Source of the DNA: Acidimicrobiia bacterium
GTDB lineage: Bacteria; Actinomycetota; Acidimicrobiia; IMCC26256; JBMOIJ01
Reading direction: 5' to 3'
NCBI GenBank assembly: GCA_049317385.1
Contig: JBMOIJ010000001.1
Location: 468-64,467 of the forward strand
DNA length: 64,000 bases
The notes under the pieces were generated by a model, which saw nothing but the letters and a program-made list of their open reading frames with translations, made no database searches and was not told the origin of the DNA. Positions 3,518 to 25,752 of this stretch are shown in pieces. Each line of letters begins with the position of its first letter. Position 1 is the stretch's first letter. The position numbers and the translations under genes were made by a program.

Positions 3518-4708
<1,191 letters not shown>

Positions 4709-4733
4709 CGGATTTCGCTCCTTACGTATGGTC

Positions 4734-4777
4734 GTCGTTGCGGCTCGGCAGGTTACCTGCCTCGCTTCCGCAACGAC
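4734..4777 (-). promoter_or_regulatory. Composite stem-loop in the fusA-tuf spacer
   Basis: The outer 10-bp stem is GTCGTTGCGG/CCGCAACGAC. It encloses an inner hairpin, GGCAGG-3nt-CCTGCC. TAAGGAG (the tuf SD) follows on the minus strand. Confidence 0.45.
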
Positions 4778-4815
4778 TCCGATTGTTGATAAACGGGGGG
4801 ATTCGGACGGCCGCG

Positions 4816-6924
4816 CTACTCGCCGCGAGCCTTGGCGATGATTTCTTGCGAGACCGACTCGGGTACCTGTTGGTAGGAGTCGAACTGCATCGTGTAGGTC
4901 GCGCGCCCTTGGGTACGTGACCGAAGGTCGGTAGCGTACCCGAACATTTCCGACAGCGGCACGTAGGCCCGAATGGTCTGCGCGTTGCCCCGCTGCTCCA
5001 TGCCCTCGACGCGGCCACGGCGAGAGTTCAAGTCGCCGATGACGTCGCCCATGTAGTCCTCGGGGGTGACCACTTCGACCGCCATGATCGGCTCGAGGAT
5101 GACCGGCTTGGCCATGCGGACGGCTTCCTTGAAGCCCATGGAACCCGCGGTACGGAAGGCCATTTCCGAGGAGTCGACCTCGTGGTACCCACCGTCGGTG
5201 AGGGTCACCTTCACGTCGACCACCGGGAAGCCGGCCAGCACACCCGTGCCCATGGCCTGCTCCACGCCGACGCCCACGGCCGGGATGTATTCCTTGGGCA
5301 CACGACCACCGGTGACGGAGTCGCCGAACTCGTAGCCGTTGCCGGCGCCCGCCGGCTCGAGGTCGAGCACGATCTTGGCGAACTGCCCCGAACCACCCGT
5401 CTGCTTCTTGTGCACGTAGGTGTGGCCCTTCACCGGCGAGGTGATGGTCTCGCGGTAGGCGACCTGCGGCTTGCCGACGTTGGCTTCCACGCCGAACTCG
5501 CGCATCATGCGGTCGACGAGCACCTCGAGGTGGAGCTCGCCCATGCCCTCGATGATGGTCTGGCCGGTCTCTTCGTCGGTGTGGACCCGGAAGGTGGGGT
5601 CTTCATCGGAAAGCGACGCCAACGCCTTGCCCAGCTTGTCCTGGTCGTTCTTGGTCTTGGGCTCCACCGCCACCGAGATGACCGGCTCAGGGAACTCCAT
5701 CTTTTCGAGGATGATCTGGCCCTCTTTGAAGCAAAGCGTGTCACCAGTGGTGGTCTGCTTGAAGCCGATGCCCGCCACGATGTCGCCGGCGTACGCCACG
5801 TCGATGTCTTCGCGGTGGTTGGCGTGCATGCGAAGGATGCGACCGATGCGCTCCTTCTTGTCCTTGGTGGAGTTGAGGACTTCCGAGCCCTTCTCGAGCT
5901 TGCCCGAGTAGATGCGGAAGTAGGTGAGCTTGCCGTGCGGGTCGGCCACGATCTTGAACGCCAGCGCACTGAACGGCTCGCGCACGTCGGCGTGACGCTC
6001 GATGGGCGCACCGGTCTTAGGGTCGGAACCCACGATGGCCGGAATGTCGAGCGGGCTCGGCAAGAAGTCGACCACTGCGTCGAGCATGGGCTGCACGCCC
6101 TTGTTCTTGAATGCCGAGCCACACAGCACCGGCACGAACTCGCCGGCGATGGTGCCCTTGCGAATGGCGTGCTTCACGTCGTCGCCGGTGAGTTCCTCGT
6201 CGGCGAGGTACTTCTCCATGATGTCTTCGTCGGCGGCGGCCACGAGGTCGATCAGTTCGTGGCGGTACTCGTCGGCCTGCGCTTTGAGGTCGTCGGGGAT
6301 GTCGGTGACCTCGAACTTCGCACCCTCTTCCTTGTCGTCGATGGGCCACACGATGGCCTTCATCTGGACGAGGTCGACGATGCCGCGGAAGTCGCCTTCG
6401 GCGCCGATGGGCAGGTTGATGACTGCCGGCGTCGCGTCGAGACGATCCTTGATCATGTCGACACAACGAAAGAAGTCCGCACCAGTGCGGTCCATCTTGT
6501 TCACGAAGCAGAAGCGTGGGACGTTGTACTTGTTGGCCTGGCGCCACACCGTTTCGGACTGCGGCTCCACACCGGCAACCGCGTCGAACACCGCAACTGC
6601 GCCGTCGAGGACGCGCAAGCTGCGCTCCACCTCGACGGTGAAGTCGACGTGACCCGGCGTGTCGATGATGTTGATTTCGTGACCGTCCCACTGACAGGTG
6701 GTGGCCGCCGAGGTGATGGTGATGCCGCGCTCTTGCTCCTGGACCATGTGGTCCATGACCGCGCCACCCTCGTGCACTTCACCGATCTTGTAAGTGCGAC
6801 CGGTGTAGAAGAGGATGCGTTCGGTCGTGGTGGTCTTGCCCGCGTCGATGTGGGCCATGATCCCGATGTTGCGGGTTTGGTTGAGCGGGGTCTTGCGCCC
6901 GGCGCTCGCGGCGGCGTCAGCCAT
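4816..6924 (-). CDS. fusA: Elongation factor G
   Basis: 702-aa ORF ...[25 protein letters not shown]...DTPGHVDF. Confidence 0.98.
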
Positions 6925-8813: not shown

Positions 8814-12971
<4,158 letters not shown>

Positions 12972-16474: not shown

Positions 16475-16740
16475 GGTCACTCCTTCGCCAAAGCGGACGA
16501 TGGGGACGGGCAAGGACCGCGCTCGAAGCCCGCGCGACGCGCGGGACGGCGTAACAGGGAAAACACGCGAGTGTTCAGCGGGCGTACGGGCAGGGAGACA
16601 CGGCGAGGCCGAGCCTAGCTGGCGCCAAGCCCGGTCGCAAACAGTGTCTCCGCCTCTCAGCCCGGGACGGGGCCCACGAGGGGCCGACCCGTTTCGAGTG
16701 GCCGCAGGGTACGACGGGACCCCCGAGAGGTCAATCACCT

Positions 16741-16780
16741 GAACGCAAAAGATCCCGGGCTCAACCCGGGATCTTTGCGT
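16741..16780 (-). terminator. rplL-rpoB intergenic terminator/attenuator
   Basis: On the minus strand, AAAGATCCCGGG-TTGAG-CCCGGGATCTTTT followed by GCGTT. It lies 15-20 nt downstream of the rplL stop, the classical attenuator position. Confidence 0.75.
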
Positions 16781-16794
16781 CGGAATACGACAAA

Positions 16795-17190
16795 TTACTT
16801 GAGTTCGATGGTTGCGCCGGCTTCTTCCAGCTTGGCCTTGGCCGCTTCGGCGTCTTCCTTGGAAACTTTCTCGAGGACCGGCTTGGGAGCACCCTCGACG
16901 AGGTCCTTGGCTTCCTTCAGGCCCAGGCCCGACACGATTTCTCGCACAACCTTGATGACCTGGATCTTCTTGTCGCCAGCGGCGGCGAGGATCACGTCGA
17001 ATTCATCCTTTTCTTCGGCCGCACCGGCGTCGCCGCCACCGGCAACGGCGCCGGGGGCAACGGCCATCACGGCGGCCGGGGCCGCGGCAGTGACGTCGAA
17101 GGTCTCTTCGAACTTGGTCTTGAACTCGGAGAGTTCGAGAAGGGTCATGCCCTTGAACGCTTCGATCAGTTCATCGGTGCTGATAGCCAT
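16795..17190 (-). CDS. rplL: 50S ribosomal protein L7/L12
   Basis: 131-aa [26 protein letters not shown]...[40 protein letters not shown]. Confidence 0.97.
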
Positions 17191-17224
17191 TGCTGTTTCG
17201 CTCCTGGTTTTGCGATCTGGGGAA

Positions 17225-17785
17225 TTACTCGGATTCGGTTGCTTCGCCGCTCTGCTCGCGCTTTTCGATCAGCGCGTTCACGGCGTAGAGCACGTTGCGC
17301 GCGCTGCCTTCGAGAAGCGACGCCATCTGCGACAGCGGCGCCTCGAAAAGGCCGGCGATCTGACTGAGGAGCACTTCGCGCGACGGCAGGTCGGCGAGGG
17401 CCTCGATCTCTTTGGGGGTGACGGCTTTGTCACCGAGGATGCCGCCCTTGAGTACGAACGCGTCGTTGCTCTTGGCGAATTCCTTCATGGCCTTGGCGGC
17501 CGCCGCGATGTCGCCCTTCACAAAGGCGATCGCAGTGGGACCTTCCAGGAACTGGACGAGGTCGGTGGCCCCGACTTCCTCGACCGCCCGGCGGGCCAGG
17601 GTGTTCTTGAAGACCTTGTACTCGGTCTCGCTGGGGCGCAGCGCCGCCCGCAGCTCGGCCAGCGCCGTCACCGAGAGGCCGCGGTACTCGGTCAGCACCG
17701 CAGCTTCGGACTCGCCGAGCTTGGTGCGGATCTCGTCGACCGCCGCTTCCTTGGTGGCGCGAGCCTCAAGGGCTGTTTTCGCCAT
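17225..17785 (-). CDS. rplJ: 50S ribosomal protein L10
   Basis: Trimmed to the ATG at 17783-17785, giving [23 protein letters not shown]...LTEYRGLSV. It lies upstream of rplL. Confidence 0.9.
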
Positions 17786-18046
17786 GGGTGGTTCCAGTCT
17801 CCCGTTCAACGTTCTGGTCGGGGCCTCGACCCAGAGGGAGGCACCACGCGACCGCCGCAGCTCAGCGCTGCACCCGACGCAGGAGCCACCTCGTTCGGCG
17901 GGGCAGGAGCCCCATTACCTCGCCACACCTGAGGGGTGGAGAGACCGAAGGTCTTCGGCGCTCGATTGCGGAACGAGAAGCTAGCAGGCCGGTCCAGCCC
18001 CCGTCACCAGCGGATTCGGCACCGGGCCGAATCGTGCGGCGCGGGG
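17786..18046 (-). promoter_or_regulatory. rplJ 5' leader/promoter region (possible L10 autoregulatory leader)
   Basis: A 261-nt non-coding gap upstream of rplJ with small hairpins: AGACC-3nt-GGTCT at 17942-17954 and ATTCGGC-5nt-GCCGAAT near 18013-18031. The role is assigned by position only. Confidence 0.3.
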
Positions 18047-19192
18047 TCAGCGCCCGACGCCGCCAGCGCTCCCCGGCTGGGGATGCTCGGGCCCGTCGGA
18101 CGCCACGGTCCTCGGCGCGTTGACCACGTAGTCCTTCTCGACGGTGCCGACCTCGGCCGAACCCCGCAGGTACGAACCCTTGTGGACCGTGCCGTGGCGC
18201 CCTGGAATCCCGAACATCGGCCGCTCCGGCGTGTACGTGACGTTGTGGCCCCGCACGGTGTGGAGCGCCTGCGCGAACGACTGGCCGCTGCGCAACGCGT
18301 CCTCGACGACTCGCCGGAGGTCGTCGGTGAGCGTGACCTCTTCGTAGCGACCGAGCGCACCACCGTGCTGCTTGCGGAACTTCTTCGCGAGCTTTTCGCT
18401 CGGGTCGCGCGTGACGCGCTCGACACCCTTTTCGAGATTCAGGAACGCCCATGTGGCCAGGAGCGGTCGCGTCAACCCGCCCACGGTGAGGAGGTTGTCG
18501 GCCTCCAACCCAGCGGTGATGTTGATCTCGTTGTTGTAGCTGGTGGCCGGGATGGCCCACGCCCCCATGGCGTCGAGCCGCAGCACGTCGCCGATCTTGT
18601 CGGTCGCGAACGCGATGGCCCCGAGGAAGACGATGTCGTCCTTCGTGGGCTCGACGTAGAGATCCATTTGGTACGCAAACGCTTCACCATCGACCAAGGC
18701 GGACGGGTCGGATCCATCCACGACGTCGACGACCGCTCGGAACTGAGCCAGATCGAAGTCGCTCACCTTCGCGCCCCACGAGTGATAGCGCTGGAAGTCG
18801 AGGTACTTGAAGCCCGGCACCTGGGTCTCGATCCAGAACTCGTCGTAGGGACGCGCGAGCGGCGGCACCGCTTCAAGGAGGTGACGGTCGATCCCGGCCA
18901 ACCACTTCGGAACCCAGTCGCTGGCGATTGCATGCACGTCGAGGTTGCCGGTCTCGATACGCGGCGCCCGCCGCGCCCGTTGCTGCTCGAGTTCGTAACG
19001 ATCGACCGCTGCCCCCACCTGGTAGTCGCTGGCGTTGGGGGCGAGCCCAGGAAACCGCGAGCCATCAGGGCCCACGGGCGCCAACTTCCCGGCCTGAACC
19101 AGCGGGCCAGCATTGTCGGGGTCGCGCATGAAGTCGGCCAGGCGGGACGGCCGAGCGCCGAAGGTACGGAGGCGATCAATGAGACGGCTCAT
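18047..19192 (-). CDS. Hypothetical soluble protein (~381 aa) inserted between rplA and rplJ
   Basis: A long ORF in the same orientation as the flanking r-protein genes. I prefer the ATG at 19190-19192 (MSRLIDRL...). The longest ORF starts with TTG at 19228. There are no TM segments and no motif I can assign. The C-terminus has ...HTVRGHNVTYTPERPMFGIPGRHGTVHKGSYLRG. Confidence 0.6.
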   Translation of the reverse strand: MSRLIDRLRTFGARPSRLADFMRDPDNAGPLVQAGKLAPVGPDGSRFPGLAPNASDYQVGAAVDRYELEQQRARRAPRIETGNLDVHAIASDWVPKWLAGIDRHLLEAVPPLARPYDEFWIETQVPGFKYLDFQRYHSWGAKVSDFDLAQFRAVVDVVDGSDPSALVDGEAFAYQMDLYVEPTKDDIVFLGAIAFATDKIGDVLRLDAMGAWAIPATSYNNEINITAGLEADNLLTVGGLTRPLLATWAFLNLEKGVERVTRDPSEKLAKKFRKQHGGALGRYEEVTLTDDLRRVVEDALRSGQSFAQALHTVRGHNVTYTPERPMFGIPGRHGTVHKGSYLRGSAEVGTVEKDYVVNAPRTVASDGPEHPQPGSAGGVGR

Positions 19193-19257
19193 GCGCCTAT
19201 TGTCCGGTTTCCTGCAGTTTTGGGGCAAGTCTGGGGCTCAGCGAGCCCCAGACCCCC

Positions 19258-19965
19258 TCACACTGCGGCTTCGGTCTGGATGCGGTTCGGGTCGATCTTG
19301 ATGCCCGGGCCCATGGTGGAGCTGAGCGAGACGCCCTTGATGTAGCGACCCTTCGCGGCCGACGGCTTGGCCCGCACGATCTCGTCGTGCACCGCTTCGA
19401 GGTTCTGGGCCAGCTTGTCGGCGTCGAAGCTCACCTTGCCGATGGGCACGTGCACGTTGCCATGACGGTCGGTGCGGTATTCCACCCGGCCACCCTTGAA
19501 CTCGGTGACCGCCTTGGCGACGTCGGTGGTGACAGTGCCGGTCTTGGGGTTCGGCATGAGGCCACGCGGACCGAGCACTCGACCGAGCTTTCCGACCTGC
19601 GCCATGAGGTCGGGCGTGGCGATGGCAAGGTCGAAGTCCATGAAGCCGCCTTCGACCCGGGCAACCAGGTCTTCGGCACCCACAACATCGGCGCCCGCTT
19701 CTTCGGCCGCGCGCGCCGCGTCGCCCGCGGCGAACACGGCGATGCGCACGGTCTTGCCCGTGCCGTTCGGCAACGCGACGGTGCCGCGCACCACCTGGTC
19801 GGCCTTGCGCGGGTCGACGCCCAAACGGAACGCAACGTCGACGGTCTCATCGAACTTGCGCTTGGCGAAGGACTTCACCTTCTCGATGGCCTCGGGGCCC
19901 GAGAACAACTGTTCGCGGTCGAAGGTCTTCGCCGCGTCGGAGTAGAGCTTTCCGTGCTTGGTCAT
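19258..19965 (-). CDS. rplA: 50S ribosomal protein L1
   Basis: 235-aa [16 protein letters not shown]...[34 protein letters not shown] overlap with the rplK stop. Confidence 0.96.
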
Positions 19966-20393
19966 CAGCCGACCACCTCGATGCCCATCGAGCGCGCCGT
20001 GCCCTCGATCTGCTTCATCGCGCCTTCCATGTCGACCGCGTTGAGGTCGGGCATCTTGGTTTCGGCGATCTGACGCACCTGGTCGCGGGTGACCGAACCA
20101 ACCTTGGTGGTGCGAGGGTTGGACGAACCCTTGTCGAGCCCCGCGGCCTGACGCAGCAGCACCGGCGCCGGCGGAGTCTTGAGAACGAACGTGAACGACC
20201 GGTCTTCGTAGATGCTGATCTCGACCGGCACCACGGTGCCCTTTTGGCCTTCTGTCTGCGCGTTGTACGCCTTACAGAAGTCCATGATGTTGACGCCGTG
20301 CGGACCGAGAGCGGTACCGACCGGCGGAGCGGGCGTCGCGCCTCCAGCTTGAATCTGGATCTTCACGACGGCCGCAAGCTTCTTGCGAGCCAT
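19965..20393 (-). CDS. rplK: 50S ribosomal protein L11
   Basis: Trimmed to the ATG at 20391-20393, giving [44 protein letters not shown]. Confidence 0.95.
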
Positions 20394-20496
20394 GATGCTG
20401 TGTTCCTTTCGCGAACGGATTCGCTCCGACTGGCCGGCCCGGTGGCCGGCTCGACGTTTCCCGCCGTGGCGTCGTCCTCCACGGCGGCCGCCCACA

Positions 20497-20814
20497 CTAG
20501 CCGCTCGGCTTTCCGAGCCCTTTGGGGAGCCGGCGGCGCACATGCCCGAGCGCCCGCTCCGCCCACACCACGTCGCGGGCCAGCAGCGCCAACCCGGCCA
20601 CAATCACCAGCAGCCCGGGACCAGGCAGTACCAGCATGGCAACCCCCGCCAACAGGACAACGAAGCCGGCTCCCATCCGAACCAGCCGGACCACGACGTG
20701 GCTCCGTGCCTGGTCCATCGTCTCCTCGCGAGGCCCGGTCTCGAGTTCGGCCGCAATCGCCGCGTCCCGGAGGCGCTCGGGCAGGTGATCCGCAGAGTCC
20801 GTGTGCGCCGTCAT
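20497..20814 (-). CDS. PGPGW-motif small membrane protein
   Basis: Two hydrophobic helices flank [27 protein letters not shown], the PGPGW-family pattern. The ATG at 20812-20814 lies 2 nt after the upstream stop. Confidence 0.6.
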
Positions 20815-20816
20815 CG

Positions 20817-21869
20817 TCAGTACCGCAGCTTCAAGGCAACCCGCCCGTGGCCGGCGAGTGAACCGTCGGGGACCACGGTGCAACGACCACGTTTGGCCAG
20901 CACGACTTCGATGAGTTCGTCGACGAGGTCGTCGACGACCCCGGGCGCATCACGGTCGATCGCGCGGATCGGGTGTCCCGTGACCGAATCGACGTACGCG
21001 GGGTACTCGAAGCTCTCTTCGACCAGGAGCAGATCACCCCGCCCGTGACTGGCGAGGAGCCATACCTCTTCGATACCGAACGCAATCCGCGTCCCTGCTG
21101 CGGATTCGAGTTCGGCGCGCGCCTCGATCACCTCTTCCGCCAAGAGCTGTTCGACCACAGGTCCGACCAACGCGGCCAGCACAGTCGGGTCGGGGAAGTC
21201 CTTAGTGGCACGCACCACACCCGACACCGCCATGCGGAGTTCGCTGCGCGCCATCACCTGCGACACACGCGGCTCGGCCCCTACCAGCACGATCGGCAAG
21301 GGGTCATCGCGGTGATGCGCACGGAAGATCGCATCGAGACGCCGCACGTAACGCCCTAGGCGCTCGTCCCGATCGAACGAACGCTCGGAGTCGGCCGCAT
21401 CGGGATCGGGGATCAACGGAAACCCTCCCCCTCTCACCTCCGACAGACCGAAGCCGAGCCCTTCGTAGCAACGCGTGACGCGCTCACTCAAGGTCACGAC
21501 GCGGTATCGGGGGCTGCACTGGCGCGCCCGCACCAGGTCTCTGGTCGCGAACGTCTCGTCGACCACCACGCGTTCACGCACTCGGACCGGCAAAGGCTCG
21601 ATCTGCTGCAACCGCTCGTTGACATACACCGCAATCCCGCGCTGGCCGGGTTGCACCTCGACCGACTCGATCAACTTCTCCAGGTCAGCGACCAGGTGCG
21701 CGCAACGATCGTCACCGAACTCGCGTGCCAACCGCCCCGCCGCATCTCGGCCGAGCGCACGGAGCCGCTGCCGCACGATCGACGCCGGTTGGTCGTCGAC
21801 AGGCACGAGCAGCGAAACGGACGGGTACGCCACCGAACCTTGAATGAACGCAACATCGAGAGAGGTCAT
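20817..21869 (-). CDS. eRF1/Pelota-like protein (bacterial aeRF1-like, baeRF-type); no GGQ motif
   Basis: 350 aa. It has an N-terminal ...SLLVPVD.. block and a central ...YRVVTLSERVTRCYEG.. block. The C-terminus reads ...AFGIEEVWLLASHGRGDLLLVEE...VDDLVDELIEVVLAKRGRCTVVP...VALKLRY. This is the layout I associate with baeRF families, recognised by eye only. Confidence 0.45.
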   Translation of the reverse strand: MTSLDVAFIQGSVAYPSVSLLVPVDDQPASIVRQRLRALGRDAAGRLAREFGDDRCAHLVADLEKLIESVEVQPGQRGIAVYVNERLQQIEPLPVRVRERVVVDETFATRDLVRARQCSPRYRVVTLSERVTRCYEGLGFGLSEVRGGGFPLIPDPDAADSERSFDRDERLGRYVRRLDAIFRAHHRDDPLPIVLVGAEPRVSQVMARSELRMAVSGVVRATKDFPDPTVLAALVGPVVEQLLAEEVIEARAELESAAGTRIAFGIEEVWLLASHGRGDLLLVEESFEYPAYVDSVTGHPIRAIDRDAPGVVDDLVDELIEVVLAKRGRCTVVPDGSLAGHGRVALKLRY

Positions 21870-22744
21870 GACCGAACTCCTTCCATCTGCGGACTTCGCA
21901 TCCTGCGGAGACGCTCGACGCGCTCCTCGATCGGGGGATGGGTCATGAACAGCCGCGCGAACTGCACGCGCTTGCCGGTGATCGGGTTGACAATGAACGC
22001 GCTCGCCTGAGCCGGCTGCAGATCCATCGGCACCTGCTGCGAGCGCGCTTCGAGCGTCAGTAATGCTTGGGCCAGCGGCTCCCCATCGCCGATGATCTCC
22101 GCGCCACCTCGGTCGGCCTCGAACTCGCGAGCCCGACTCAGCGCCAACTGCAGGATCGTGGCCGCAACGGGAGCCAGAAACGCAATGAGCAGCGTCGCGA
22201 ACGGATTCTGCCCCTCGTCATCGTCACTGGAACCGAACATGCCAGCGAACAATGCAATGTTGGCCAAGGCCGAAATTCCTGTTGCGATTGCCGCGGCCAC
22301 CGACCCAATGAGGATGTCGCGATTTCGGATGTGAGCCATCTCGTGCGCAAGGACAGCCCGCACCTGGTCCGGTGGGCAGAACGTCATCAGCCCTTCGGTC
22401 ACGGCGACCGCAGCGTGCTTGGGACTGCGACCAGTTGCGAACGCGTTGGGCTGCGGCGACGGCGACACGTACACCCGCGGCTTCGGAAGATTCGCGCGCT
22501 GCGCCAACTCCTCGACCATCGCATGCAGCTGCGGCGCCGACGCTTCGTCGACCTCGTGCGCTCCCGCCGCCCGAACGGCCAGGCGATCGGAGAACCAGTA
22601 GGTGAACCCAACGAGGGCCAAACCAATGGCCAAACCGATCAGCGCACCCGAAGCTCCGCCAACCAAGCTCCCGACGGCCACGAGGAGACCACCGGCCGCC
22701 GCCAGCAGGACGAACGTCTTCACCGTGTTCTTGAACGCCATCAT
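21866..22744 (-). CDS. htpX: Zinc metalloprotease HtpX (M48 family)
   Basis: 292 aa with N-terminal TM helices, the zinc motif HEMAHIRNRD, ...EFEADRGGAEI... and ...MTHPPIEERVERL. Confidence 0.9.
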   Translation of the reverse strand: MMAFKNTVKTFVLLAAAGGLLVAVGSLVGGASGALIGLAIGLALVGFTYWFSDRLAVRAAGAHEVDEASAPQLHAMVEELAQRANLPKPRVYVSPSPQPNAFATGRSPKHAAVAVTEGLMTFCPPDQVRAVLAHEMAHIRNRDILIGSVAAAIATGISALANIALFAGMFGSSDDDEGQNPFATLLIAFLAPVAATILQLALSRAREFEADRGGAEIIGDGEPLAQALLTLEARSQQVPMDLQPAQASAFIVNPITGKRVQFARLFMTHPPIEERVERLRRMRSPQMEGVRS

Positions 22745-22753
22745 CGTGACTCC

Positions 22754-23053
22754 TCAGAAGTCGAAGAGCTCGCCGAGGAAGCTCTCTTTCTTCCTCTTCT
22801 TTCCGTAGTAGCGGTAGTCATCGTCGTAGTGGCGCCGGTCGTCGTAGTGGCGCCGGTCGTCGCGTCGATCCCGGTAGCGGTCATCCCCGCCGCCCCGCGC
22901 GGCCACCGGCTCCGGCGAGGGCACACTGCGCTCAATGAGCTTGTCGAGTTCGCCTCGATCGAGCCAAACACCCCGACACTCCGGGCAGTAGTCGATTTCA
23001 ATTCCTTGACGATCACTGATTGCCAGCTGTCCATGTCCCTGTGGGCACTGCAT
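22754..23053 (-). CDS. TFIIB-type zinc-ribbon protein with Arg/Asp/Tyr-rich tail
   Basis: MQCPQGHG...IDYCPECRGVWLDRGELDKL (two Cys/His pairs), ending in ...KKRKKESFLGELFDF. The longest ORF starts with TTG at 23068. Confidence 0.65.
   Translation of the reverse strand: MQCPQGHGQLAISDRQGIEIDYCPECRGVWLDRGELDKLIERSVPSPEPVAARGGGDDRYRDRRDDRRHYDDRRHYDDDYRYYGKKRKKESFLGELFDF
22821..22856. repeat. Perfect 18-bp tandem duplication inside the Zn-ribbon gene
   Basis: tcgtcgtagtggcgccgg occurs twice in a row, followed by a partial third copy. It is in-frame and encodes DDRRHY DDRRHY. Confidence 0.9.
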
Positions 23054-23064
23054 GGGAGTTCCTT

Positions 23065-25752
23065 TCAAGGTTCGAGATCGATGACCACCGGCTCGGGGTT
23101 ACGCCGGCGATCGATGAACTTCAACACTTCGGAAACCGCGATGATGGAGCTCGCCACCGCAAGCATCAGGAGCCAATCGAGCACCGAAAGCTGCGCAGCG
23201 ATCTCGTCGCCGGTGATGAGCCGCTGCAACGGCGACCACAGCACTGCGAGCACCTGCAGCCCCGCGACGACTGCCAGCGCCCACCAGAGTCGTGCGTTGC
23301 GCAACGTGTGTGAGCCGAACACGCTCAGACGATCGAATCGAGCGTTGAAGAGGTTGAACATCTGGAAGAGCACGAACGTGGTGAACGCCATCGTGGCCGC
23401 TCGAGCGTGCGCAATTTCCGAGATCTCACCAAGCTGGCCCGCGGCGTAGAAGTACACGCCGATCGTTCCCACCATCATCACCGTGGCGAGGGCGACGAGT
23501 CGCCGAATCCGTCGACCGTCGAGGATCTGCGCGTTGGCATTGCGCGGCGCACGGCGCATCGTGTCGGGATCGGGTGGGTCGACACCGAGGGCCAAGGCCG
23601 GGGGCCCGTCCATGATGATGTTCACCCAGAGCAGTGCGACCGGCGTGAAGAACACGCCGCCCCCGGCAGGGATCGCGAACAGGGTGGCAGTGAGAATCGT
23701 GAGGATTGCGCCCATGTTCGTGGCGAGCTGAAAGCGCACGAACTTCGTGATGTTGTCGTAGATCGTGCGTCCGCCCCGCACAGCATCGACGATCGTGGCG
23801 AAGTTGTCGTCGGTGAGCACCATCGCCGCCGCTTCCTTGGTGACCTCCGTTCCCGTGATCCCCATGGCGACGCCGATATCGGCGCTCTTCAGTGCCGGCG
23901 CATCGTTCACCCCGTCGCCAGTCATGGCAACCACATCACCGCGGGCGCGAAGCGCATTCACCAAGCGCACCTTGTGCTCCGGCGCAACCCGTGCGAACAC
24001 GGCGATGTCGTCGACTCGGCGAGTGAGTTCTTCATCGCTCATCTGGTCGAGATCGGCGCCGGTTACGACATCGCCACGAAGCCCCAACGAGCGCCCGATG
24101 ACACCGGCAGTGACGGCGTGGTCGCCAGTGATCATCTTCACGGCAATGCCGGCGCGGCGGCACAACGCAATGGCATCGCGCGCTTCGGGCCGCTGAGGAT
24201 CCTGGATACCGAACAGCCCGTCGAGCTGGAGGTCGGATGCGAAGGCATCGAGTGCATCGGATCGGAAGTCCGCGACTGGGATTCGCCGCGTCGCTACCGC
24301 CAGCACTCGCAGGCCGTCGCCAGCGAAGGCCTCGTTCGCATCCGTCGCTCGACGCCGCATGTCGGCATCGGCCACTCGCCGCAACACGACGTCGGGGGCA
24401 CCCTTGACGATCGCAAGAACGTCGTTGCCGTCGGAATGAAACGTCGCCATGAACTTGTGTGCAGAGTCGAACGGGATCTCGGCGATTCGCGGGAATCGCT
24501 CATGGAGCGCCGGAAGATCGAAGCCGCCAGCTGCTCCGAGCAACGCTCCTTCGGTCGGGTCCCCCACAACCCGACCGTCATCGAGCCGCGCGTCGTTGCA
24601 GAGCGCGCCTGCCCTGACCAGCGCTCGGGCGCTCTCGGGCGGTCCGGCCTCGCCAATCGCGTGCGCATCACCGTCGCGCCAACACGCAACGGCGGTCATC
24701 CGGTTCATCGTGAGCGTGCCGGTCTTGTCGGTGCAGATCACGGTCGTGCAGCCGAGCGTTTCGACAGACGCCAGCCGCTTCACGATCGCGTGACGCTTCG
24801 CCATCTGATGGGTACCGATGGCAAGCGTCACGGTGAGCACCGCAGGGAGCCCCTCGGGAATCGCCGCGACGGCAAGCGCCACTGCCTGCAAGAGCGTGTC
24901 GGAGAACGACTGGCGTCGGATCAGCCCGACGATGGTGACGGCGAAGACGGCCGCACCCGCAATGAGGGTGAGACGCATGGCCAGACGATCGATCTGGCGC
25001 TGGAGCGGCGTCTTGCCCGGATCGGCGTCTCGCAACATCCCTGCGACGCGCCCAATCTCGGTGTCGGCGCCGGTTGCGGTCACGACCATCTCCCCGCGAC
25101 CACGGGTCACGGTGGTGTTCATGAATCCCATCGAGCGCCGCTCGCTCAGCGCCGCCGCCTGCGCGACCGGTTCCGTCTGCTTGGCCACCGGCAACGATTC
25201 GCCGGTGAAGGCCGCCTCGTCGACTTCGAGGTCGGTGGCCGCCACCCACCGACCGTCGGCCGGGACTCGATCGCCCGGCGACACCAAGACCACGTCACCC
25301 GGAACGATCTCCGCAGCGGGAACCTCAATGACGTGGCCATCGCGCCGGACCCGGGCGGTGGTCACGAGCATTCGCTTGAGTGCCGCGAGGCTCGATTCAG
25401 CGCGCGACTCCTGTACGAATCCGAGCAACGCGTTGATGATCACGACCACCGCAATGATGATCGGATCTTTCAGCTCTCCACCTACGACGTAGGCGACCAC
25501 CGCCGCCACCAACAACACGAGGACAAGGCGGTTGGTGAACTGCTCGGCGAGGAGCTTCCACTTCGACTTGGGCGGAGCCGACGCAAGTTCGTTGCGGCCG
25601 TACGCGTCGATCCGTGCAGCTGCCTCGGCCGCCGTCAGGCCGGCAGAAACCGAGACCTGGAGACCGCGTTGCACCGCGTCAGGGGCCTGAGACCACGACG
25701 GGAGCGCGCCGTCGCTCGGGACAGCTGTCGAATCAGTTGCAGTCGAAACCAC
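23065..25752 (-). CDS. P2-type cation-transporting ATPase (Ca2+/CtpF-like)
   Basis: 895 aa with ICTDKTGTLTMNRM (phosphorylation site), AIPEGLPAV in TM4, MITGDH, and VAMTGDGVNDAPALKSADIGVAMG. The start is a GTG with GAAGGGAA upstream. Confidence 0.9.
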   Translation of the reverse strand: MVSTATDSTAVPSDGALPSWSQAPDAVQRGLQVSVSAGLTAAEAAARIDAYGRNELASAPPKSKWKLLAEQFTNRLVLVLLVAAVVAYVVGGELKDPIIIAVVVIINALLGFVQESRAESSLAALKRMLVTTARVRRDGHVIEVPAAEIVPGDVVLVSPGDRVPADGRWVAATDLEVDEAAFTGESLPVAKQTEPVAQAAALSERRSMGFMNTTVTRGRGEMVVTATGADTEIGRVAGMLRDADPGKTPLQRQIDRLAMRLTLIAGAAVFAVTIVGLIRRQSFSDTLLQAVALAVAAIPEGLPAVLTVTLAIGTHQMAKRHAIVKRLASVETLGCTTVICTDKTGTLTMNRMTAVACWRDGDAHAIGEAGPPESARALVRAGALCNDARLDDGRVVGDPTEGALLGAAGGFDLPALHERFPRIAEIPFDSAHKFMATFHSDGNDVLAIVKGAPDVVLRRVADADMRRRATDANEAFAGDGLRVLAVATRRIPVADFRSDALDAFASDLQLDGLFGIQDPQRPEARDAIALCRRAGIAVKMITGDHAVTAGVIGRSLGLRGDVVTGADLDQMSDEELTRRVDDIAVFARVAPEHKVRLVNALRARGDVVAMTGDGVNDAPALKSADIGVAMGITGTEVTKEAAAMVLTDDNFATIVDAVRGGRTIYDNITKFVRFQLATNMGAILTILTATLFAIPAGGGVFFTPVALLWVNIIMDGPPALALGVDPPDPDTMRRAPRNANAQILDGRRIRRLVALATVMMVGTIGVYFYAAGQLGEISEIAHARAATMAFTTFVLFQMFNLFNARFDRLSVFGSHTLRNARLWWALAVVAGLQVLAVLWSPLQRLITGDEIAAQLSVLDWLLMLAVASSIIAVSEVLKFIDRRRNPEPVVIDLEP

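Follow-up and report, generated by a model that had tools for sequence, protein, structure and literature searches.

A diverged chromosomal member of an actinophage protein family, probably related to AcrVA2 and FinQ, between rplA and rplJ of an Acidimicrobiia bacterium

The ribosomal protein genes rplA and rplJ of an Acidimicrobiia bacterium (GTDB lineage Bacteria; Actinomycetota; Acidimicrobiia; IMCC26256; JBMOIJ01) are separated by a long open reading frame (ORF) that an earlier note, made from the sequence alone, had described as an orphan. Here we report a computational analysis of this ORF. The window, by which we mean the whole stretch of DNA that was analyzed, comprises 64,000 nucleotides (nt) of contig JBMOIJ010000001.1 (GenBank assembly GCA_049317385.1, positions 468 to 64,467 of the forward strand). 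Coordinates are those of the window, and its features lie on the minus strand unless stated otherwise. The ORF proved to be a diverged chromosomal copy of a phage protein family, phrog_20769, whose C-terminal domain is very probably related to that of the anti-CRISPR protein AcrVA2 and the fertility inhibitor FinQ.

RESULTS

An intact gene occupies the rplA-rplJ junction

The ORF spans 18047..19192, with its ATG at 19192 and its TGA at 18049-18047, and encodes 381 amino acids (aa). Pfam searches on the neighbors identified rplA on the upstream flank (L1, 19258-19965; Ribosomal_L1, E 6e-73) and rplJ on the downstream flank (L10, 17225-17785; Ribosomal_L10, E 3.9e-28). The co-oriented gene order is thus L11 (19965-20393), L1, the 381-aa ORF, L10, L7/L12 (16795-17190), and then rpoB. 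As the earlier note had it, 65 nt separate the rplA stop (19258) from the ATG (19192), and 261 nt separate the ORF stop (18047) from the rplJ ATG (17785).

Other descriptive claims about the ORF also held. The C-terminal His/Arg/Gly-rich block, HTVRGHNVTYTPERPMFGIPGRHGTVHKGSYLRG, is present in the translation, and no transmembrane segment is predicted (maximum Kyte-Doolittle hydropathy over 19 aa, 1.29). The protein contains no Cys. The ORF has a GC content of 0.67 (0.69/0.46/0.85 at codon positions 1, 2, and 3) in a genome of roughly 65% GC, and the neighboring ribosomal protein genes have third-position GC (GC3) values of 0.76-0.88. The synonymous-codon log-likelihood of the ORF is -0.905, within the spread of 32 other long ORFs in the window and a little higher than their average (-0.968 +/- 0.099). 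Both measures, GC3 and codon log-likelihood, agree with the neighbors, as a judgment by eye had proposed. A TTG 36 nt upstream would extend the frame to 19228 and the product to 393 aa. However, the N-terminal motif MxRLxDR that begins at the ATG is common to the whole protein family described below and to the orthologue in a close relative (MRRLIDRLR). Hence, the start codon is fixed at ATG 19192, as had been preferred. The ORF is almost certainly a real gene.

An antisense ORF of 469 aa (17936-19345, plus strand) was considered and rejected as a high-GC shadow frame: the homology and the GC3 signal are on the minus-strand frame.

The ORF product belongs to phrog_20769

It had been stated that the ORF could not be matched to any family. 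That claim was overturned by a search of PHROGs, in which aa 109-359 matched profile positions 61-316 (of 318) of phrog_20769, a family of "unknown function," with an E value of 2.4e-9. The window protein had no match in Pfam, NCBIfam, or PADLOC. Members of phrog_20769 likewise had none in Pfam, bar weak XisH-like matches in a few of them, and AcrVA2 itself has no Pfam match either.

How readily relatives were found depended on the query. With the window protein, a word-indexed search returned the protein itself (locus tag ACOYNI_00085) and one relative, P0002, which is 67% identical; with a 38-sequence profile it returned 5 proteins, and with a consensus-like member, 802. We also ran an exhaustive HMMER profile search over 1.84 billion representatives of clusters formed at 50% identity. 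With a profile of the window protein and P0002, 1,905 proteins scored E <= 1e-3, of which 176 reached E <= 1e-10. The best match beyond P0002 itself (E 2.8e-220) had an E value of only 1.2e-18. From this gap we conclude that, within a very large family, the window protein belongs to a branch that is rare and has diverged strongly. All 38 of the aligned homologues matched phrog_20769, whose proteins are typically 280-340 aa long and fall into at least 1,900 clusters at 50% identity.

The family carries characteristic motifs. In the N-terminal and middle parts these are MxRLxDR, DNVAEY...DFPNxAPPFxxFWxE, a WG, and PxLLAxSFMHCKNV; toward the C terminus they are LSKKWxKRHGRPLVRYHVLDIxPM and ALHICRGHFATYTxxxPLFGxxxGTFWKPQHVRGSxxxGxVVKDYxV. 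The window protein meets them at MSRLIDRL, RPYDEFWIE, H311/R314/G315/H316, R343-G344, and K353-D354-Y355. In an alignment of 122 family sequences, the only invariant columns are H311, R314, G315, H316, and Y355 (window-protein numbering). It is virtually certain that the window ORF belongs to phrog_20769. Sequence-profile searches of the PDB yielded noise only (a designed repeat protein and MAPKAP kinase), and these matches were discarded.

phrog_20769 is carried by phages

Among cultured phages, phrog_20769 occurs in actinophages only. tblastn searches from the window protein found Mycobacterium phages Omnicron (gp54, E 1e-4) and Mutaforma13 (gp50, E 6e-3), while the member P0007 found Gordonia phage BritBrat (gp54, E 4e-15) and Corynebacterium phage phi16 (E 3e-11). 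All four homologues are annotated as hypothetical. The two loci that we examined among them, in Omnicron and Mutaforma13, lie in early regions and adjoin repressor/antirepressor or replication genes. Foldseek searches of BFVD with an AlphaFold2 (AF2) model of the window protein returned uncharacterized phage proteins of 300-336 aa (probability 1.0).

Members on metagenomic contigs had similar company. Contigs L005 and L006, binned with a Gemmatimonadota metagenome-assembled genome, carry terminase, portal, Mu-F, and capsid genes; L004 carries HNH, methyltransferase, and RNA ligase genes; and L113 to L115 carry genes for an integrase, a helix-turn-helix (HTH) repressor, RecT, and a sigma-70 region 4 protein. 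Every family context examined was that of a phage. Relatives of phrog_20769 also occur on a few plasmids, but tblastn with a family member found none on Escherichia coli plasmids.

On L005 and L006 the family gene (10001-10873) sits among small ORFs between a Mu-F-like head gene and a capsid gene. The position of the family within phage genomes therefore varies in the manner of a moron, from this head region to the early regions seen elsewhere; for the most part, family genes lie in early or accessory regions. Some members (P0016, P0032, P0040, and P0045) have an additional C-terminal domain of about 150 aa with a D...E-V-K-S-L-T motif. This domain has the look of a PD-(D/E)xK endonuclease and gives weak XisH matches, the best of which (E 0.0019) falls under the Pfam threshold; such an extension may be a clue that the family works with an effector.

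The window protein shares with its actinophage relatives the N-terminal MxRLxDR, PPF..FW.E, H-x-x-R-G-H, and KDY motifs. The actinophage proteins differ in being about 285-295 aa long, in keeping both conserved Cys residues, F317, and W337, and in being encoded in early phage regions. The window protein, in contrast, has some 70 aa inserted after its N-terminal helix, lacks Cys, and is encoded on a chromosome.

The C-terminal domain of phrog_20769 resembles that of AcrVA2 and FinQ

AcrVA2 is an anti-CRISPR protein of a Moraxella bovoculi prophage that acts on Cas12a through translation-dependent loss of the target mRNA, and its homologue FinQ, a fertility inhibitor carried by plasmids, reduces the level of F tra mRNA (bioRxiv 10.1101/2022.11.29.518452). 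Both bind a specific target polypeptide, and the mRNA of that target is then lost during translation. According to the same study, the conserved C-terminal residues H286, R288, and H291 of AcrVA2 are needed for mRNA down-regulation, and about 1,800 homologues occur on mobile elements, mostly in bacteria without Cas12a. The similarity among these homologues is limited to the C-terminal domain; the N termini of AcrVA2 and FinQ diverge (bioRxiv 10.1101/2022.11.29.518452).

The first hint of a link between phrog_20769 and this group that we describe is structural. The AF2 model of the window protein, built from 122 family sequences, had a mean predicted local distance difference test (pLDDT) score of 78 and a predicted template modeling (pTM) score of 0.72; a model from a two-sequence alignment was useless (pLDDT 32). 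A Foldseek search of the PDB with the former placed AcrVA2 (7ci2_A) at the top, with an E value of 8e-3 and a probability of 0.77, and all other matches had probabilities of 0.07 or less.

A second link lies in the residues themselves. The AcrVA2 motif, taken from Extended Data Fig. 11 of the study above and from the PDB sequence, reads RPH286-I-R-R-G-H291-W-H-G-Y-W ... R-W-Q-P-A-V-F-V, and the phrog_20769 consensus reads ALH311-I-C-R314-G-H316-F-A-T-Y-T ... F-W-K-P-Q-H-V-R-G. H311 and H316 align with H286 and H291 of AcrVA2, and R314, the equivalent of R289, is invariant in the family. Hence, the invariant residues of the family coincide with the functional motif of AcrVA2. The segment concerned in the window protein, H311-T-V-R314-G-H316 (18245..18262), is an instance of the family-invariant H-x-x-R-G-H. 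It lies within a C-terminal module of aa ~230-362 (18107..18505), where most family matches align and to which the proposed relation to AcrVA2 and FinQ applies.

Profile comparisons gave a third link. hhalign paired ALHICRGHFATY...FWKP with RPHIRRaHWHgY...RWlpP (P 0.013-0.019). When restricted to the C-terminal domains, its global alignment was colinear, running from a helix near a conserved Cys through a basic stretch and a strand-helix to H..RGH and W.P. In a column-permutation control on this domain, the local score beat all but 2 of 400 permutations and the global score all but 1 of 400.

We then used a hidden Markov model (HMM) of the AcrVA2-family C-terminal domain, made from 31 diverse sequences (phage and plasmid homologues found by tblastn, plus ten from Supplementary Table 2 of the published study) and run unfiltered on 227 full-length proteins of the phrog_20769 family. 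P0153 (HIRRGHFADY...FWMSPTLVG) matched at E 1.6e-6 and P0133 at E 4.1e-6 (HMM columns 11-97), and 11 members in all scored below 0.01. The median score of the real sequences was 6.1 bits, against 5.5 bits for the best of 227 reversed decoys and 3.0 bits for the best shuffled one. Both top proteins belong to the family on other evidence: P0133 is found by the window-protein profile (E 2.7e-11), and P0153 matches the family profile at 7e-36. An earlier, shallow AcrVA2 HMM, whose sequences contained optical character recognition errors, had given 9.7 bits or less; it took the deeper profile, limited to the C-terminal domain, to make the link significant. The precomputed annotation of P0153 also lists PF26125.1, an entry that we could not resolve, since it had no local Pfam-A match and the accession was not found in the searchable literature.

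AcrVA2 (PDB 7CI1/7CI2; phrog_6160) and the phrog_20769 family share several features. They are of one size class (322 aa versus 300-380 aa) and are carried by mobile elements. Their C-terminal domains are colinear: a long hydrophobic helix ends near a conserved Cys and is followed by a basic stretch, a strand-helix ("vWdVG..iG..lR" versus "vRYhVLdI.PMrkvLR"), then H-I-[RC]-R-G-H-[WF]-x-x-[YF] and [FR]-W-x-P-x-x-V. The essential H286 and H291 match the invariant H311 and H316, and AcrVA2 is the best structural match in the PDB. AcrVA2 differs from the window protein in that the window copy is chromosomal and in a core locus. The host ranges are complementary: AcrVA2 and FinQ relatives occur in phages of Proteobacteria, Lactobacillus, and Leptospira, and phrog_20769 occurs in actinophages. 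The part of the published AcrVA2 homologue list that we examined contains no mycobacteriophage or Acidimicrobiia entries. We conclude that the C-terminal domains of phrog_20769 and AcrVA2/FinQ are very probably homologous at the level of the family. That the activity is conserved in the diverged window copy is somewhat less probable.

One member of the AcrVA2 family drew our attention for its surroundings. On the Thioflavicoccus plasmid pTHIMO01 (L104, 1-1514), the gene lies directly downstream of the BREX gene brxL and a small ORF and adjoins a reverse transcriptase gene. A gene of the counter-defense type is thereby located in a defense island.

The window copy is diverged and under constraint

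A close relative, represented by the JGI contig L001, has rplA followed by an orthologue that starts with MRRLIDRLR. L1 is 91% identical between the two, and the ORF products are 67.5% identical. The proportions of nonsynonymous and synonymous differences (pN and pS) are 0.19 and 0.55, giving a ratio of nonsynonymous to synonymous substitution (dN/dS) of about 0.22, and identities at codon positions 1, 2, and 3 are 0.79, 0.84, and 0.54. The gene is under constraint. Although the two orthologues are only ~67% identical overall, they agree at all 27 residues surrounding the motif (ALHTVRGHNVTYTPERPMFGIPGRHGT), and for this reason we take the motif region to be still strongly constrained.

Against the rest of the family, the window protein keeps 32 of 53 strongly conserved positions. 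A lineage-specific stretch, aa ~12-80 (18953..19159), is gapped in most family members and was modeled poorly in part: aa 27-40 fell below pLDDT 50, and the means of 10-residue blocks were 44-78.

C253, H311, C313, and H316 are 99-100% conserved in the 120 other members, and the window lineage has Leu and Val in place of the two Cys residues. It is possible, judging from these columns, that the four form a C-H-C-H metal site of the family.

The gene was inserted ahead of the rplJ leader in one lineage

The earlier note had asked whether orthologues occupy the same slot in related genomes. One does: L001 has an intact frame on the rplA side of the same junction. In a sample of the 80 best rplA loci among GTDB species representatives (L1 identity <= 76%), tblastn and HMM searches found family members at none, and a scan of metagenome contigs found no further orthologues. 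Occupancy of the slot is lineage specific. An independent Logan assembly has the same rplA-ORF-rplJ arrangement as the window.

The junction is by no means fixed in size. The rplA-rplJ gap is mostly 140-450 nt at related loci, and in many lineages it is 700-3,800 nt. The L008 gap (4690-6567) holds a GNAT-like gene and small membrane ORFs, and that of L026 (4733-5731) holds a KaiC/RecA-like ATPase gene on the opposite strand. In these Actinomycetota the same slot is expanded as in the window, but the cargo is unrelated and none of it belongs to the family. Unrelated cargo has landed repeatedly in the rplA-rplJ junction of Actinomycetota, and the junction tolerates insertions.

The rplJ-proximal part of the window spacer (17889..18005) matched, by blastn, the corresponding spacers of L008 (E 1e-8) and L009 (E 6e-6), relatives without the ORF, and represents the ancestral upstream (leader) region of rplJ. 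Accordingly, the insertion is placed downstream of the rplA stop and ahead of this leader. No target-site duplication and no direct, inverted, or terminal repeats were found flanking the ORF. Rfam gave no relevant L10 leader or other family at E <= 1 within 16500-21000.

Two further features of L001 were noted. Its orthologue is followed by a tandem paralogue (1991-2629), truncated by the contig end, that is 32% identical to the window protein and has its ATG on an ATGA overlap with the stop of the first copy; the overlap suggests translational coupling of the two copies. The window genome has a single copy. The rplA frame of L001 (2-1024) has no stop at the expected place and runs on for ~100 codons through the spacer into the homologue; either the assembly is wrong here or the protein is truly extended at its C terminus.

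Putative transcription signals suggest a separate transcription unit

A perfect 11-bp hairpin with a 3-nt loop, a 100% complementary inverted repeat, lies 4 nt past the rplA stop (19229..19253). Its folding energy is -29.4 kcal/mol (z score -4.7), and none of 200 shuffled sequences folded as well. It is likely, on this evidence, to be a terminator or attenuator of rplKA. Directly past the ORF stop is a stem-loop (18000..18045) with the core GATTCGGC/GCCGAATC, which is terminator-like but lacks a U-tract; its energy is -26.8 kcal/mol (z score -3.15), and 1 of 200 shuffles folded as well.

Just downstream of the first hairpin is a promoter-like element (19199..19228) made up of TTGCCC (19223-19228), an 18-nt spacer, and GACAAT (19199-19204), 6 nt from the ATG. 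The counterpart in L001, TTGCCG-N18-GACAAT-N6-ATG, has the same spacing, and the rest of the spacer has diverged. A consensus promoter scan passed over the element, which matches at 8 of 12 positions; our case for it is its conservation in L001. The end of the -10-like hexamer lies 7 nt upstream of the A of the ATG, as would suit a leaderless mRNA, a type of transcript often found in Actinomycetota. A leaderless mRNA would also explain the weak Shine-Dalgarno sequence at the ATG. The arrangement suggests that the ORF has its own promoter and a leaderless or near-leaderless mRNA. The ORF is probably transcribed separately, between the two hairpins and apart from the ribosomal protein operons.

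Genes upstream of rplK

Directly upstream of rplK is a 350-aa ORF (20817-21869) that matches Pfam baeRF_family3 (E 1.5e-17), a bacterial family that resembles archaeo-eukaryotic release factors. It overlaps the start of a gene for a PGPGW membrane protein (20497-20883), and beyond it lie HtpX (21866-22744) and a TFIIB-type Zn-ribbon protein (22754-23068). In the window, rplK does not adjoin the secE-nusG pair that usually accompanies it.

DISCUSSION

The explanation that we favor, and hold to be probable by a modest measure, is that the window ORF is a working gene that came from a phage and became fixed in one Acidimicrobiia lineage, is related to AcrVA2 and FinQ, and acts as a target-specific silencer under its own control. 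The suggestion that it might be a domesticated mobile or phage gene was borne out to this extent: the family is phage-borne, yet the gene matches the host in composition, evolves under purifying selection, and is found at the same chromosomal site in a second lineage.

Several observations weigh against this explanation. The phage origin of the family rests on about 10 contexts examined. AcrVA2, FinQ, and the megaphage homologues make up phrog_6160, a PHROG separate from phrog_20769 (FinQ E 3.2e-26). Foldseek TM-scores to 7ci2_A are low (0.25-0.29 over 240 columns), and the hhalign probability for the whole profiles is ~3%. In the N-terminal and middle domains, the hhalign score (8.9) falls at the median of the permuted controls, 158 of 300 of which scored at least as high, so that no similarity to AcrVA2 beyond chance was detected there; the same comparison found no counterpart of the AcrVA2 N-terminal W79/D89 region. 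Where AcrVA2 has R288, the family has Cys and the window protein Val, with the adjacent Arg invariant. The window protein itself scores -1.3 bits against the AcrVA2 C-terminal HMM, below the noise, and has no phrog_6160 match. Its tie to AcrVA2 is therefore transitive, through its family. In addition, near-invariant residues are replaced in the window protein (C253L, C313V, F317N, W337H, G299A, and N256G), and the same six replacements are found in the orthologue P0002; C253, C313, F317, and W337 are 99-100% conserved in the 120 other members, where the window protein has L, V, N, and H. The activity of the window copy may thus differ from that of the family or be lost.

Those replacements invite the thought that the ORF no longer has a function and is what a decayed prophage or mobile element left behind at an intergenic site that tolerates it. 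It is a lone gene of a phage family, without mobile-element neighbors or adjacent phage genes; no flanking direct or inverted repeats are left; and the near-invariant residues that it has lost include both Cys residues and W337. A remnant would not, however, be expected to keep a 381-codon frame open in two lineages whose proteins differ at 32% of positions, with a dN/dS of 0.22 and an identity at third codon positions (0.54) below that at positions 1 and 2 (0.79 and 0.84). The fully conserved 27-residue block around H-x-x-R-G-H, the conservation of the start region and of the promoter-like element, the tandem paralogue kept in L001, and a codon use fully ameliorated to that of the host all speak against decay as well, and we regard this account as unlikely. 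Nearly equal in probability, and perhaps a shade more likely, is that the protein is a nucleic acid enzyme or DNA-binding regulator unlike AcrVA2, for instance a His/Cys metal nuclease or a homing-type selfish gene. The conserved family columns C253, H311, C313, and H316 would fit a metal nuclease, some members are fused to a PD-(D/E)xK/XisH-like C-terminal domain, family genes occur at varied phage positions and often near HNH genes, and the window copy is inserted between highly conserved genes. Yet the window protein has no Cys at all, and the XisH matches, weak and below the Pfam cutoff, are in other members only. Pfam, NCBIfam, and PADLOC offered no match, Foldseek found no nuclease or DNA-binding fold but AcrVA2 as the sole credible PDB match, and the insertion shows neither a target-site duplication nor repeats.

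The earlier note had inferred from the position of the ORF that it is probably co-expressed with ribosomal proteins and may be a ribosome- or translation-associated factor. A general host factor of this kind, cotranscribed with rplKA or rplJL, would account for a gene co-oriented between L1 and L10, with host-like composition and under purifying selection, and the related AcrVA2 acts only on translated mRNA. But only the window genome and one close relative carry the gene, which was found at 0 of 80 further related rplA loci; its family is phage-borne; elsewhere the slot holds unrelated genes (the GNAT-like gene with small membrane ORFs, and the KaiC/RecA-like ATPase); and a strong hairpin (-29.4 kcal/mol) stands between rplA and the gene, which has a conserved promoter-like element of its own. 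We therefore set this inference aside, and consider the ribosomal factor the least likely of the explanations weighed here. Since the junction recurrently takes unrelated cargo, position beside ribosomal protein genes is not to be read as function. A link to translation could nevertheless hold for a reason other than position, as AcrVA2 acts in a translation-dependent manner.

If the ORF is indeed a phage-derived silencer, its history and action might have run as follows. A phage gene would have been captured and fixed in the rplA-rplJ intergenic region of one Acidimicrobiia lineage. By analogy with AcrVA2, the variable N-terminal two-thirds of the protein would recognize a target protein or nascent chain, and the conserved C-terminal module with H311, R314, and H316 would deliver silencing, the target mRNA being lost during translation. 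The chromosomal copy may then help to exclude or ward off a phage or plasmid, in the manner of FinQ, or else silence a host gene. FinQ is a member of the superfamily with a non-CRISPR target and hence a precedent for exclusion between elements; it differs from the window gene in being plasmid-borne (IncI/F-like), in its Enterobacteria hosts, and in belonging to phrog_6160 rather than phrog_20769. To our knowledge, AcrVA2 alone among the prokaryotic proteins described so far recognizes a nascent polypeptide and brings about the loss of its mRNA. That the window protein works by an AcrVA2-like mechanism is a possibility that we put forward tentatively. The fuller proposal is more doubtful still: that the gene encodes a host defense or regulatory factor, expressed from its own promoter, that destroys the mRNA of a recognized nascent polypeptide, and that phrog_20769 is a second silencer branch with targets other than Cas12a.

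Neither the connection between phrog_20769 and AcrVA2/FinQ nor a chromosomal copy in a ribosomal protein cluster is described in the literature that we searched. The annotation of the window gene can shift from "orphan hypothetical" to "AcrVA2/FinQ-like, phage-derived." As a rare copy on a host chromosome under purifying selection, it hints at a defensive or regulatory use. At the level of the family, the link would extend the AcrVA2/FinQ superfamily into phages of Actinomycetota, with tractable members in Mycobacterium smegmatis, Gordonia, and Corynebacterium phages. The common core motif, H-x-x-R-G-H followed by W-x-P, would aid mechanistic work, and the family may thereby offer a handle both on the unsolved mechanism of AcrVA2 and on a large block of phage dark matter.

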